Both the position numbers and the translations under genes were made by a program. From Bryobacterales bacterium (lineage in GTDB: Bacteria; Acidobacteriota; Terriglobia; Bryobacterales; UBA6623): a DNA stretch of 64,000 nucleotides. This document shows, piece after piece, positions 50,183-54,827 of the stretch (positions are counted from its first letter, which is position 1; every line of letters starts with the position of its first letter). The notes under the pieces are model-generated. The model was not told where the DNA came from and ran no database searches. It was given only the letters and a program-made list of their open reading frames with translations. The stretch lies in NCBI GenBank assembly GCA_965205595.1, contig CBDBHI010000020.1, positions 82,056-146,055 on the forward strand, written 5' to 3'.

Positions 50183-50917
50183 CAGCTAGAACGCCCAGCG
50201 TAACAGGTGCCCTAGCTCACCAAGCCGAACTTCGGTGGCACGCGCGTAAGCAAGTGCGTAGGCGAAGCGCGTGCGCTGATGGGAAGGTACATGATCCTGC
50301 TGAAAATCCCGCAAATCGACCAAAGTCTGCCGACGTAGCCGATCACGATGGGGCGCTTCACGGCTTCGTCGCGCCTCTGGCGGGCCGCGTCGACCCCTAG
50401 CTCAACGTTCTTTCCGAACCAGCACTCGCTGTCGGCGTGTCCAATTGCCGGTCTACGCTTTCGGTGAAAAATCCGGCCTAGAGCAATTTCGCTGATGCCA
50501 TAGATCGTTCTTGAATAAAAAGCGGTGAAGCCGGCAATTTCTGGAGACTAGATTCCGCTGTCCAAAATCGGAGGCAGTAGAGTAGGGGAGGGTCCCGCAA
50601 GCGGGCTTGACCTCCCCCCTCGTCGAACCGGACTTGCGGATTTCCCGCATCCGGCTCTCCAACAAGCTCTCGCCTTGGGCATGCGCGGGTCGAGACTAGT
50701 GCGAGCGGTTCAGCTCCAGCAGCCCCTGGCGTTGGAAAAAGGAATACCAAGGCTCGTCCTTCGGCGGTCGAAACCGGTGCTGTCCCCGCCGTCGCAGATG
50801 TCGCATGAAACGCCACCGCAGGTACCAGTCCAGCTCCCAGTAGGCACCCCGCGGATAGCCCCTCGAAAAGTAGTTCGCCCAACCTCTCATCTGTCGGTTT
50901 AGCCGCCCGATCACCAA

Positions 50918-51066
50918 GGGGCTGTGAAAAAACCTCCCCTAACTCGAGAATCGGGCGTAGCAAGCTACGCCCCTACAAATAACTTGCGTGTTATCAGCGC
51001 TGTAGGGGTGCGACATGTCGCACCCTCGGGCGACCGCAGAGCTATTCGAGGTTTTTTCACAGCCCC
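50918..51066. mobile_element. 149-bp MITE with 19-bp perfect TIRs containing two GTAG-footed REP-like hairpins
   Basis: ggggctgtgaaaaaacctc ... gaggttttttcacagcccc; hairpins at 50953-50976 and 51002-51025; interrupts PLA|LVIGRLN of the RT. Confidence 0.85.
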
Positions 51067-51533
51067 TAACGCCAACGGCACATGCGATTGCGACACACTC
51101 GTCATCTTTCGCAGCCGTTCCCGCTCACGCCCGACCGATTTCGCCGACGGGCTCCTGTTCCAATACCCCCACTCCCTGGCTAGCAGGTCGCGGTCCCATC
51201 GAAACAGGTAGCCCAAAAACTCAAGGCTCGCTCCTGCTTCCCTCAGTTCCACCACGCGGGTCTTCTCCCGGTTCAGCTTCAATCCCATCCAGACTTCCAA
51301 CTTCTCTTCGATAAACGCTTCCAGCGCTACGTCCCGCCCCTTCATCATCACAACGAAGTCGGCGGCGTATCGCACCAGTTTCGCGCTCCCTCCCCGCGCC
51401 GGACTCGCCCGATGTCTGAGAAACACCTTGTCGAACCCGTGCAGATATGAGTTCGCCAACAGCGGAGTGATGACGCCGCGAACGCAAAAGGTAACTTTGT
51501 GTTTGATCGGGAATTGCGGTATCGATAATGCGC

Positions 51534-51572
51534 TTGAGATGTGTCATGTACAGTTGTATTCTTATGACATAT
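51534..51572 (+). promoter_or_regulatory. Putative sigma70 promoter overlapped by an inverted repeat
   Basis: TTGAGA (51534-39), 17 bp, TATTCT (51557-62); TGTCAT...ATGACA inverted repeat at 51542-47 and 51564-69; ATG at 51571. Confidence 0.6.
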
Positions 51573-51900
51573 GGGTCGTGCCGGCGACGCCCAAAAAGCC
51601 GAGCGTCTCAATCGCGCTCGCCGCTTGCTGCAACAGTTCGACCATCTGCCCGACGCCGTCGAAGAGATGGTGCGAGACTGCCGCATCTCTCCCCGCCAGG
51701 CATATCGTTACCTCGAACAAGCGCAGCGTCTGAAGCAGCCCCTTGCTGTTGGCGATGCCAAGGTCGCCTTTACGGTGAAGGTGTCGCGGAGTTTGGTCGA
51801 ACGCGTGCGTTCCCACGCCGCCGCTACCGGGACGTCTCTCAGCGAGGTCGTCTCGCGAGCTTTGCTTGCGCTGCTCGATCGGAGACGGGGGCGTGGCTGA
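51571..51900 (+). CDS. Small DNA-binding protein (HTH-like + ribbon-helix-helix-like)
   Basis: ISPRQAYRYLEQA (HTH-like) and FTVKVSRSLVERVRSHAAATGTSLSEVVSRAL (RHH-like). Confidence 0.75.
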   Translation: MGRAGDAQKAERLNRARRLLQQFDHLPDAVEEMVRDCRISPRQAYRYLEQAQRLKQPLAVGDAKVAFTVKVSRSLVERVRSHAAATGTSLSEVVSRALLALLDRRRGRG

Positions 51901-52171
51901 GCAGCAGGCCGGCCAGGAACTCGCGCTTCGATTCGAATATCGGTTTGATCGTTTACTGCCCGCTAAGCCGGCCCAGGTTTACCAGTTGCCGGCGCCCGAG
52001 CAGCGATGGCCAATCGGCCAATCGCATCCCCAGGAGAAGATCCATGAACAAAGCTGCCGCCATCTACGCTCGCGTCTCTTCGAATCGTCAGAAGGACAAT
52101 CACACGATCGCCTCTCAGACAGCCGCACTGAGGCAGTATGCCCAGACGAACGGGTACGCAGTGCCGGCTGA
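51893..52171 (+). CDS. Small hypothetical protein overlapping the recombinase start
   Basis: GTG start overlapping the upstream stop; LRFEYRFDRLLP..AQVYQL; overlaps the recombinase by 128 nt in another frame. Confidence 0.5.
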   Translation: MAEQQAGQELALRFEYRFDRLLPAKPAQVYQLPAPEQRWPIGQSHPQEKIHEQSCRHLRSRLFESSEGQSHDRLSDSRTEAVCPDERVRSAG

Positions 52172-53858
52172 GTGGGTGTTCGAGGACGAAGGCTACAGTG
52201 GAGCCAACTTGGCGCGACCCGGCTTGGAAGCCCTGCGCGATCTGGCGGCGGAAGGGCGGATTGAAGCGGCGCTGGCTTACTCGCCGGACCGGCTTAGTCG
52301 CAAATATGCGTATCAAGTCCTGTTAACCGAAGAACTCTCGCGCTGTGGGGTGGAGTTGATTTTCTTGAAGTCGGCGGCGGGGAGCACGCCTGAAGATCAG
52401 TTGCTGGTGCAGTTTCAAGGCATGATCGCCGAGTACGAGCGGGCGCGGATCGCTGAGCGCTCGCGGCGGGGCAAACGGCACAAGGCCCAGCAGGGAGTGG
52501 CGAACGGACTCTCGGGTGCGCCTTACGGGTATCGCTATGTGAAGAGGAGCGAGCGTTCAGAGGCTTACTATGAGGTGCTCGACGCGGAAGCGCGGGTGGT
52601 GCGAGAAGTGTTTGAGCTGTACAGCGAGCAACGCTTGAGCATCAACGCCATCGCTCGTCTACTGAACGAGCGGCAGATTCCCACGCGAACCGGGAAGACA
52701 CGCTGGGAGCGCTCGACGGTTTGGGGGATGCTGCGGAATCCGGCTTATCACGGCGTGGCTTGCTACGGCAAGACCCGGCTGCGGCCTCGTCAACGCATCA
52801 CTCGGCCGCTGCGTCTGCGCCAGGGAGCGCCGAGTCGAGACAGCGCCACTCAGCAGCGGCCGCGGCAAGAATGGATCGAGATTCGGGTACCGGCGCTGGT
52901 CGCCGAAGAGACCTTTGCGCTCGCTCAGGAGCAGTTAGAGAGCAACAAAAAGCACTCGCCACGGCGCACCGTCGAGCCGACGCTGCTGCAGGGGATGTTG
53001 GTGTGCCGGCAGTGTGGTTACGCTCTGTACCGAGTTTCGACACGGACATCGAAACGAAGGCTGTCCTATTACCGTTGCCTCGGCTCGGACGCCTATCGGC
53101 ACCTGCAGGGAGCGTTGTGCACCAACCGACCCATCCGGCAAGATTCGTTGGATGAGGTTGTCTGGAGGGCGATCATCGAGTTACTCGACGATCCGTCGCT
53201 GATCCGTTCGGAGATCGAGCGTCGCATGGAGGTCGCCCAGAACGCCGATCCACGGCGCAGACGAGAGGCCGACTTGCGACGGGAGCGGGTGCGCTTGGAG
53301 AACGGTGCCGAGCGGTTGGTGATCGCTTACCAAGAAGGACTGCTGACGCTGGCCGAGCTGCGCCAACGAATGCCTCCTCTGCGCAAGCAGCAGCAGGCGA
53401 TCGAATCTGAGTTACACTCCCTCGAGATGGCGGCTGAGGATCAGTCTAAATACCTAAGGCTGACGGAAACGCTGGGGGAGTTTCGCGCCAACTTGCAAGC
53501 GCGGGCTGACTCCCTCGATGTGAGAGAACGCCAGAAGATTCTCCGGTTACTCGTAAAGGAAGTCCTTGTCGACCGCGAGACGGTCACGATCCGGCATTCG
53601 ATTCCGATCCCTCCATCCGCTCCGCTTTCCGGCGGTTCGCCATCCCCAAACTCCGGCCCGGGGGACTCGATCGTCCCAAGTTACCTTTTTCGTTCGCGGA
53701 GTCTTCACTCCACCTTGCGGCGTTCCCTTCCTGCTGCGTTCTCCTCGGTCCTTCCCTTCTCCGCGCTCGCCCTCTTCCACCACCGGCGCTTCCAGCCACA
53801 GCCGTATCCGCTTCACGACGGATCGATCCGCGATCCGGTGCCGCACGCACGCCAGTAG
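52044..53858 (+). CDS. Large serine recombinase (resolvase + recombinase + Zn-ribbon + coiled coil)
   Basis: AAIYARVSS catalytic motif, [39 protein letters not shown]; SD caggag; the ORF reads through attR. Confidence 0.97.
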
Positions 53859-54422
53859 TTTCTCGTGAGGTATCGAGTCGAAATAGCCTTCTAAATCCGC
53901 GTCATATACCGCTTGATATCCAGCTTGAATATGTCCACGAATCTCCTCCAGCGCTTGCTGCGCCGAGCGGCCCGGCCGAAATCCGTACGAACAATCTTCA
54001 AAGTCTGCTTCAAAGATCGGCTCCAGGATCAACAATGCGGCCATTTGCACCACCCGGTCCCGTACGGTCGGAATGCCCAGCGGGCGCTTCTTCCCGTTCG
54101 CTTGCGGTATCCAGACACGGCGTACCGCTTGCGGTCGGTAGCTCTTGGTACGCAGTTCGTATCTGCAGATGCGATACGTGGAGTTCATCCACCAAGCGCC
54201 GCGCGCCGCCCTCTTGCGCTTCGATCGCTGTGATCGTTACTTGTCGATCGTTACGGAGCCGAGCCCGGGACCGCCCGCTTTCGCGCGCACCCGTCGCCAT
54301 GCCGCTTCCAACACATCGCGCCGATAGATCCGGTCGTACAAAGCGTAGAACCGAAACTCCGGCTGCTGCTTGGCCTTTTGGCCCAGCTTCTGTCTCAAAC
54401 GAGAGAGTTTCTCCGGCATCGC

Positions 54423-54827
54423 CGGGCTAGCAAGTGGAATCTTTTGAACATAAACGGCTCTCCCTTCTGTCGCAATTAGCATGCTTGTCTGACTCCGTCA
54501 GCATGAAAGCGCCAGGGCCCCTTCGCTCCACTCGCATTACCGAGCTTCGTCGCTACTATGCGCCCCTCCGACTCCCGCACCAGCCCCTGCACTGGTTATG
54601 CTTTCCCTGCGCCGCGTGGCGAGAAATGCGGGCTAGCAAGTGGAATCTTTTGAACATAAACGGCTCTCCCTTCTGTCGCAATCAGCATGCTTGTCTGACT
54701 CCGTCAGCATGAAAGCGCCAGGGGCCCTTCGCTCCACTCGCATTACCGAGCTTCGTCGCGACTATGCGCCCCTCCGACTCCCGCACCGGCCCCAGCGCTG
54801 GTTATGCTTTCCCTGCGCCGCGTGGCG
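54423..54827. repeat. 199-bp tandem duplication inside the intron RNA with 7-nt spacer
   Basis: 54423-54621 and 54629-54827, about 6 substitutions, spacer agaaatg. Confidence 0.9.

Follow-up and report, generated by a model that had tools for sequence, protein, structure and literature searches.

A large serine recombinase gene predicted to extend across attP in a compact element of group II intron reverse transcriptase genes

A 64,000-nucleotide stretch of Bryobacterales DNA (contig CBDBHI010000020.1, positions 82,056 to 146,055; hereafter the window) contains a 2,232 bp element at 51472-53703 that encodes a large serine recombinase (LSR) and interrupts a group II intron reverse transcriptase (RT) gene. 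We are confident that the recombinase gene of this element and its relatives is built across the attachment site attP, with the codons for its native C-terminus placed at the other end, where they would be read only when the ends are joined in an excised circle or a head-to-tail tandem. In the explanation that we propose, the compact 2.2-kb element enters group II intron RT genes at the GTPQGG(V)(I)/SPLLAN motif through site-specific, conservative recombination in which the crossover is 2 bp wide. As sequence comparison shows, integration severs the last 19-31 codons of the recombinase gene and puts target-supplied sequence in their place. We assign a probability of about 0.6 to the whole explanation, i.e. 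a gene across attP that gives isoforms differing in function. The part of it that concerns function, that the two isoforms behave differently, is tentative and has a little less than an even chance.

The recombinase reading frame and the two ends of the element

The recombinase open reading frame (ORF) has no in-frame stop codon before the right end of the element, and in the integrated state it continues into the antisense strand of an RT fragment matching RVT_1. Codon 554 (53703-53705, CTT, Leu) spans the end of the right repeat and the junction dinucleotide, and 50 more codons follow. An in-silico fusion of the right end with the left yields a protein of 572 aa ending in ...NAKGNFVFDRELRYR (i.e. 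L/H-DAANAKGNFVFDRELRYR), with a TAA stop codon at 51526-51528. An earlier note on this DNA had described the ORF as lacking a stop inside the element and reading through attR into the antisense RT strand, and had placed attP inside it so that integration swaps the C-terminus; with attP taken as right repeat, 2 nt and left repeat, the sequence and the in-silico join confirm both descriptions, together with the sizes given for the two proteins (604 and 572 aa) and for their tails (50 and 18 aa). The features concerned are as follows.

51470-51471, no strand: left junction dinucleotide AT, the presumed 2-bp crossover site; the same dinucleotide adjoins both repeats in most of 76 related copies.
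51472-51497, plus strand: left terminal inverted repeat (P' arm of attP), GACGCCGCGAACGCAAAAGGTAACTT; its core is unique to the two ends, and GACTCCxCGAACGCAAAAGRTAAC is kept in 60+ loci.
51472-51528, plus strand: segment encoding the predicted circle-form C-terminus (DAANAKGNFVFDRELRYR, stop TAA 51526-51528), in frame with the recombinase only after right-to-left end joining.
52044-53858, plus strand: LSR ORF in the integrated state, 604 aa (ATG 52044, stop 53856-53858), with Pfam domains Resolvase, Recombinase and Zn_ribbon_recom.
53604-53681, plus strand: linker rich in Pro, Ser and Gly (residues 521-546) that connects the folded core with the heptapeptide encoded by the repeat; predicted local distance difference test (pLDDT) score < 50, 60 distinct linkers in the family.
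53678-53703, plus strand: right terminal inverted repeat (P arm of attP), read as (S)YLFRSRS in the recombinase ORF; identified by inverted-repeat search.
53703-53858, plus strand: integrated-state tail, L554 plus 50 residues (HSTLRR...PHARQ) and stop, antisense to the RT gene (minus-strand ORF 53547-54188, RVT_1).
53704-53705, no strand: right junction dinucleotide TT (AT on the left), from the sequence.

The 26-nt terminal inverted repeats lie within a 34-nt inverted repeat whose arms (51464-51497 and 53678-53711) are 91% identical. The window contains two occurrences of the 21-nt repeat core and no more, against none expected by chance. A minus-strand ORF of 108 aa (51221-51547) starts inside the left end and exits through the left repeat, encoding the mirror peptide SYLLRSRR followed by RT sequence in another frame; the ORF is a by-product of repeat symmetry, and the wobble pattern described below gives that frame no support.

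The protein has the domains of an LSR: an N-terminal resolvase-type catalytic domain with the active-site serine (PF00239, residues 5-152, E = 1.3e-34) and a YARVSS motif that is invariant in our alignments, and the recombinase and zinc ribbon domains PF07508 and PF13408. It aligns to the SPbeta integrase (9dxh) over residues 57-523, and its alignment to the structures of the SPbeta and A118 integrases extends to about residue 520. An AlphaFold2 (AF2) model contains long helices at 366-487, in keeping with the embedded coiled coil of LSRs, and a folded core that ends with the strand at 514-518 (TIRHS). By the alignments and the model, the tail sits on a flexible linker beyond the canonical LSR fold.

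Conservation of the linker and of the predicted circle tail

Two samples of relatives were compared. The protein set consists of the 120 best database matches to the recombinase (69-99% identical, 555-707 aa). Every one of them (120/120) contains the heptapeptide [YC]LLR[ST]G[SR] that the repeat encodes, followed by unrelated tails of 2-153 aa. The genomic set derives from a scan of one genome per species that gave at least 598 pattern matches, 561 of which encode a relative; the best 80 loci were kept, and 76 of these have a recognisable right repeat. The earlier note had raised the prospect that homologues, too, lack a stop before the att site and keep a short open frame after attP. They clearly do so in these samples, in that all 120 protein homologues and 75/76 genomic copies read through the end, and the predicted circle tails (19, 25 or 31 aa) are conserved and carry a coding signature.

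The tails acquired on integration are of a different nature. They range from 1 to 618 aa, with a median of 26 where the SPLLAN side of the RT motif forms the right flank and 50 where the GTPQGG side does. Tails of the type H-x-x-x-L-R... are the antisense of GTPQGG, those of the types HQPSAGQ.VHEP..EVLAD and F[TA]AARERVPALR... come from reading ISPLLANxYLH... in the +1 frame, and a common class of 559 aa (xFAAAQ, then stop) arises from RTs with ISPLLSN (..CTC AGT AAT read as ..GCT CAG TAA). The integrated tails are thus fully explained by the RT target, either antisense or in the +1 frame, and are not selected sequences. The frequent 559-aa homologues (...SGSNFAAAQ, then stop) were considered as circle forms and rejected, their DNA being that of insertions in ISPLLSN RTs with the +1 frame ..FAAAQ-TAA. 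The expectation in the earlier note that the integrated tail would be semi-predictable holds for the first 6-15 residues, which depend on orientation, and fails beyond them.

The linker that precedes the repeat is hypervariable, with 60 distinct versions of 13 lengths (20-33 aa), yet in 75/76 genomic copies the frame stays open all the way from IRHS, the last core motif, across the linker and into the repeat. Among the 60 distinct linkers, stops are found in none in frame, as compared with 13 and 22 in the other two frames. That so variable a segment never loses its frame argues that the sequence downstream of it must be translated. This observation bears on the simplest alternative, i.e. that the arrangement is a neutral by-product of compaction in which the right arm overlaps the 3' end of the gene and neither tail is functional. 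Such an origin would accord with integrated tails that are arbitrary in sequence and length (1-618 aa) in copies that remain intact, with the position of the C-terminal 50 residues outside the LSR fold and their predicted disorder, and with the precedent of insertion sequence (IS) transposases that obtain variable C-termini from flanking DNA under relaxed selection (IS1239, PMC13630536). It leaves unexplained, however, why a hypervariable linker lacks stops and frameshifts in 75/76 copies and why left-end codons that are readable only across the junction show code-specific conservation and a fixed stop position. We regard a neutral origin as unlikely, albeit a serious contender.

The predicted circle tails have 19 aa in the window and in many other Acidobacteriota; elsewhere they have 25 aa or, in the proteobacterial lineages, 31 aa. 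They share the peptide N-A-K-[DG]-N-F-x-F-[ED]-R-x-[ILV]-x-[YW]-R, and the 19-aa form reads x-D-S-x-N-A-K-D-N-F-x-F-E-R-x-L-R-Y-R, then stop. Ten of the tail codons (30 nt) lie outside the left repeat and have no counterpart at the right end, and the codon patterns were counted in an alignment of 61 distinct left ends. The two Phe codons are TTY in 58/61 and 61/61 and the Tyr codon is TAY in 40/61, the wobble base of all three being always T or C, whereas all four wobble bases are found at the Arg position (CGN, 58/61) and the Glu/Asp position (GAN, 55/61). A hydrophobic position is Ile, Leu or Val in 57/61 in spite of changes at the first and third bases. In the 19-aa group, TAA, TAG and TGA (4/11/4) occupy a single position, and alignability is lost immediately after it.

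Frame-wide measures agree with these patterns. For the 30 nt beyond the left repeat, the Nei-Gojobori ratio of nonsynonymous to synonymous differences (pN/pS) is 0.47 in the tail frame, the other five frames giving 0.65-1.5; the number of sequences interrupted by a stop is 3/52 in the tail frame and 6-43/52 in the others. Column entropy by codon position is 1.01/0.76/1.52 (permutation p = 0.008 for the excess at position 3). The tail frame contains no start codon within the left end of the element, and translation of the recombinase ORF across joined ends is therefore the only evident source of the circle-tail peptide.

A further alternative is that the conserved 30 nt are a DNA signal (an extension of the attP arm, an RHH binding site or an upstream promoter element) and that the open frame is incidental. 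The segment is situated between the recombination arm and the promoter and operator region, the sample is short, and in the lineage with 31-aa tails the far portion of the tail runs over the -35 and -10 elements of the promoter. Against a DNA signal, wobble follows the genetic code (pyrimidines only in TTY and TAY, any base in CGN and GAN), the hydrophobic position is kept through first-base changes, the three stop codons share one position beyond which conservation and alignability collapse, and no equivalent segment exists at the right end. An explanation in terms of DNA signals is correspondingly quite improbable.

We also asked whether proteins or contigs spanning joined ends are present in databases. 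A profile of the junction peptide, run against 5.8 billion proteins, found no full-length recombinase with a circle tail and only 'hypothetical proteins' of 34-94 aa; circle-tailed recombinases were probably missed in this search since clustering at 90% hides differences in the tail. The 180 short 'hypothetical proteins' (34-94 aa) start in unrelated flanking DNA and read into the left end in the tail frame, and one of them is named chorismate mutase. They are gene-caller and annotation artefacts of the element family.

Joined ends were sought in 241 million metagenome records using the pattern right repeat/4 nt/left repeat, and three genuine head-to-tail junction contigs (L081, L083 and L084) with the order right end/2 nt/left end were recovered; a fourth match (L082) was rejected as a chance AT-rich palindrome. 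In L084 (Ga0208077_1001564), a recombinase ORF of 611 aa crosses the junction and ends in ...SYLLRSGRRDAPYAKGNFCFDRVIRGWRGSPMLDVRRKQ, then stop. Here the ORF of the upstream element terminates in the left end of the downstream element, which predicts a natural junction-spanning protein. In L081 and L083, the junction is at the contig end beside a complete element, fitting either reads from a circle or tandem copies. Joined ends are thus natural, although rare in assemblies, as is expected for a transient intermediate.

The element family, its targets and the copy in the window

The element is organised, from left to right, as left repeat, promoter-like site, RHH gene, LSR gene and right repeat. 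Its remaining parts and the interrupted intron are listed here.

51534-51562, plus strand: promoter-like TTGAGA-17-TATTCT ahead of the RHH gene, the sole sigma-70-like match in 51300-54100.
51571-51900, plus strand: small ribbon-helix-helix (RHH, CopG-type) protein, 109 aa (Pfam RHH_1, E = 1.1e-5).
53704-54482, minus strand: N-terminal half of the split group II intron RT, ending ...GTPQGGV, in several ORF pieces (RVT_1 profile positions 1-127).
50696-51471, minus strand: C-terminal half of the split RT, starting (I)TPLLANSYLH..., limits approximate (RVT_1 profile positions 145-203).
50577-50659, minus strand: group II intron domain V-VI RNA (Rfam RF00029, Intron_gpII, 51.8 bits).

An inverted repeat, TGTCAT...ATGACA, overlaps the promoter-like site and is likely to be an operator; CTTGAC and the TGTCAT/ATGACA pair are kept in the left-end alignment. 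The RHH protein is a candidate regulator or directionality factor.

The target is identified as a group II intron by RVT_1 matches on both flanks and the Intron_gpII RNA, all on the minus strand. When the element and one copy of the dinucleotide are removed, the flanks rejoin in frame as ...GTPQGGV-I-TPLLANSYLH..., and this restoration of the RT points to precise, conservative insertion into its most conserved motif. The codons of the target form a palindrome, GGAGTGATCACTCC, that resembles the joined ends of the element (GGAGTC-NN-GACGCC).

Elements at the 76 loci are 2.22-2.30 kb long and carry repeats of the consensus given above. The hosts of the best 80 loci include Acidobacteriota (Terriglobia, Bryobacterales), Alpha-, Gamma- and Deltaproteobacteria, Gemmatimonadota, Nitrospirota, Planctomycetota and others. 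Several copies per genome are frequent, and one Pseudomonadales chromosome holds 5 of the best 80. The dinucleotides beside the two repeats are usually identical (AT/AT in 25, with AA, GT, TA, GC and AC also represented), which is what a serine recombinase with a 2-bp crossover should produce. The sequences are those anticipated for LSR-mediated movement, with apparently conservative recombination between imperfectly palindromic sites, no target duplication beyond the shared dinucleotide and inverted-repeat arms of 24-26 bp.

At most of the 76 loci the flanks carry the RT motif. Twenty-five elements share the orientation of the RT and 12 run against it, as does the one in the window; N-N flanks and C-C flanks occur at 3 loci each, and the remaining loci are unclassified or have other targets. 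The N-N (L004, L058, L069) and C-C (L009, L053, L074) copies have the same RT half on both sides, inverted, and in L058, from a long-read metagenome-assembled genome, the inverted flank extends for 173 nt. These configurations suggest chromosomal inversions between oppositely oriented copies, or misassembly. Outside RT genes, L012 is located inside a large permease-like ORF that gives it a 618-aa in-frame tail, and L038 is inserted in the 3' end of another copy of the same element. L031-L041 form a sub-lineage with AA or TA crossovers and other flanks; those of L035 rejoin to GNIVPGV-F-TPVLAKH in a small ORF of no recognised function.

The inverted orientation of the repeats raises the alternative of an invertible DNA switch with the repeats as its sites and no circle. 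Inverted repeats of 34 nt do surround a serine recombinase gene, and the six loci with N-N or C-C flanks are compatible with inversions between copies. We nevertheless reject a switch of this kind as highly improbable: hundreds of copies with the same 2.2-kb content, in soil bacteria, occupy different genomic places in both orientations, each precisely splits an RT motif that is restored on removal of the element, head-to-tail junction contigs exist, and the protein is an integrase-type LSR.

The family is also present in cultured bacteria. A copy of 2,234 bp on plasmid pUSDA76 of Bradyrhizobium elkanii USDA 76 (NZ_CP066357.1, about 212.2-214.5 kb) has the same ends and a predicted circle tail of 31 aa; in RefSeq its parts are described simply as RT fragments, a 'recombinase family protein' and, for the RHH gene, a CopG family RHH protein. 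Another cultured carrier is B. erythrophlei GAS478. An NCBIfam search gave only sub-threshold matches to the XisF, Ccr and IS607 models, and the recombinase therefore belongs to no named family. No LSR element targeting group II intron RTs and no LSR ORF crossing attP was found in the literature searched, from which subscription journals were mostly absent. The family thus appears to be undescribed; it consists of abundant IS-like LSR elements that span several phyla and parasitise a retroelement, inserting into the group II intron RT where its sequence is most conserved.

The copy in the window is probably ageing. Its junction dinucleotides are mismatched (AT at 51470-71 versus TT at 53704-05), and its right repeat has a T at a position where the left repeat has the equivalent G in 61/61 distinct aligned left ends, as do nearly all of the right repeats listed; this substitution changes the usual YLLR to YLFR. 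Mismatched crossover dinucleotides block productive recombination by serine integrases. For these reasons the circle form of the window copy is only a predicted one.

The host intron has also deteriorated. The N-terminal half of the RT is split into at least three ORF pieces. In the C-terminal half there is a 151-bp insertion (50917-51067) resembling a miniature inverted-repeat transposable element, with 29-nt terminal inverted repeats (GGGGCTGTGAAAAAACCTC... in both arms) and a single copy in the window. A 206-bp tandem duplication (97% identical, 54423-54621 and 54629-54827) takes in the beginning of the RT ORF together with the 5' portion of the intron. The fragmented RT, the insertion and the duplication together indicate that the intron is a decayed pseudogene.

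Proposed role of the exchanged C-terminus and comparison with known systems

The earlier note proposed that the integration state may switch the stability, directionality or activity of the recombinase. If the two isoforms do differ, the most likely effect is that the circle would make a fully competent or stable integrase for rapid re-integration, and the integrated copy an impaired, unstable or differently directed enzyme. The best enzyme would be made only in the circle because a non-replicating circle must re-integrate quickly, in parallel with the junction promoters discussed below. A more elaborate version of this idea is a directionality switch that operates without a recombination directionality factor (RDF), in which the tethered peptide of the circle isoform would license attP x attB recombination and/or forbid attL x attR recombination, and integration would delete it. 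The integrated isoform, perhaps together with the RHH protein, would then carry out excision, and the enzyme form encoded in each state would be the one required for exit from that state, or for remaining locked in it. This switch, which we propose by analogy, is unlikely.

Several observations weigh against a functional role for the circle tail or against its production. The first 8 residues of the tail are dictated by left-repeat DNA, and the coding signature is confined to just 10 codons in 61 sequences that are not independent; moreover, the distal tail and the promoter overlap in the 31-aa lineage. The predicted family tails have no ssrA-like, LAA-like or other recognisable degron at the C-terminus, and end in varied and mostly basic residues (RYR, RKR, GAY, RQE...), the extreme C-terminus being unconserved. 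AF2 left residues 521-572 of the circle form disordered with the tail undocked, although this is weak and uninformative evidence because the alignment rows carried integrated tails and none of them a true circle tail. The recombinase gene is intact in copies whose integrated tails cover the whole span of 1 to 618 aa; whatever its tail, the enzyme evidently remains good enough to maintain the family. Only three junction contigs were recovered among 241 million records, and L084 is a head-to-tail tandem of two related but different elements rather than a circle. A scan of the natural junctions in L084 and L083 for sigma-70 consensus sites found none spanning the junction, the sole match being inside the left end, and the promoter thus appears to lie wholly within that end. 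Finally, the window copy may no longer excise and may be immobile, though its recombinase ORF is intact.

The control of LSR directionality is a central open problem, also for genome-writing tools, and as known to date it depends on separate RDF proteins. If the proposed explanation is correct, a C-terminus that is rewritten by the enzyme's own reaction would be a new and minimal coupling of enzyme properties to integration state, and a peptide present only in the excised form could provide a design principle for self-limiting integrases. The presence of the family in cultured rhizobia, such as B. elkanii USDA 76, makes these proposals directly testable. There are also practical consequences for annotation: the elements break metagenome assemblies, gene callers assign the recombinase a different spurious C-terminus at each site, and the family is currently annotated only as 'recombinase family protein' and RT fragments.

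Among known systems, the junction-promoter elements are similar in that joining of the ends creates a signal unique to the excised intermediate and makes the supply of recombinase depend on DNA state. In IS911, IS2 and IS30 the joined ends form a junction promoter for transposase expression, and in Tn4451 and Tn4453 the circle forms a promoter for the recombinase TnpX, which is likewise an LSR. In these elements the promoter is built 5' of the gene, whereas in the present one it is the 3' end of the coding sequence that is completed at the junction. The SSV1-type archaeal integrases are tyrosine recombinases with attP in their own int gene, which is split within the gene body, and inactivated, upon integration. 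They resemble the present element in that the gene for the recombinase itself contains attP and is partitioned by integration, and differ from it in that only the tail beyond the core is exchanged here, leaving the catalytic and DNA-binding domains intact.

RDFs are whole proteins of tens to hundreds of residues and bind at the coiled-coil hinge. In engineered fusions of serine integrases with RDFs, a polypeptide tethered by a linker to the C-terminus acts within the subunit and sets which sites recombine (PMC5737554). The natural linker and tail described here have the same geometry, although the fusions are artificial and the present tail is a peptide of 19-31 aa with a putative activity, whose presence is toggled by recombination itself.

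Variable C-termini supplied by the insertion site are also known from IS1239 of Streptococcus pyogenes, which has no stop within the element, and IS870 has been mentioned in the same context; the read-through in IS1239 arose by a lineage-specific 1-bp deletion and was interpreted as relaxed selection (PMC13630536). These are DDE transposases, however, and have no conserved alternative tail encoded at the other end.

The closest architectural precedent is the integration-dependent immunity of mycobacteriophage BPs and its relatives, in which attP is located inside the repressor gene near its 3' end and the state of the DNA sets the isoform that is made (PMC4557955). The viral form of the repressor is the longer one and carries an ssrA-like degradation tag (PMC4557955). 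The element shares with BPs an attP within an ORF near its 3' end and C-termini that differ between the excised and integrated states, and the analogy drawn in the earlier note holds to this extent; it does not extend to the tag, which the predicted circle tails lack. The systems also differ in that BPs combines a repressor gene with a tyrosine integrase, whereas here it is the serine recombinase gene itself that contains attP, and in that the excised form ends in a conserved peptide of 19-31 aa with no recognisable degron, while the integrated form ends in sequence of arbitrary composition and length.

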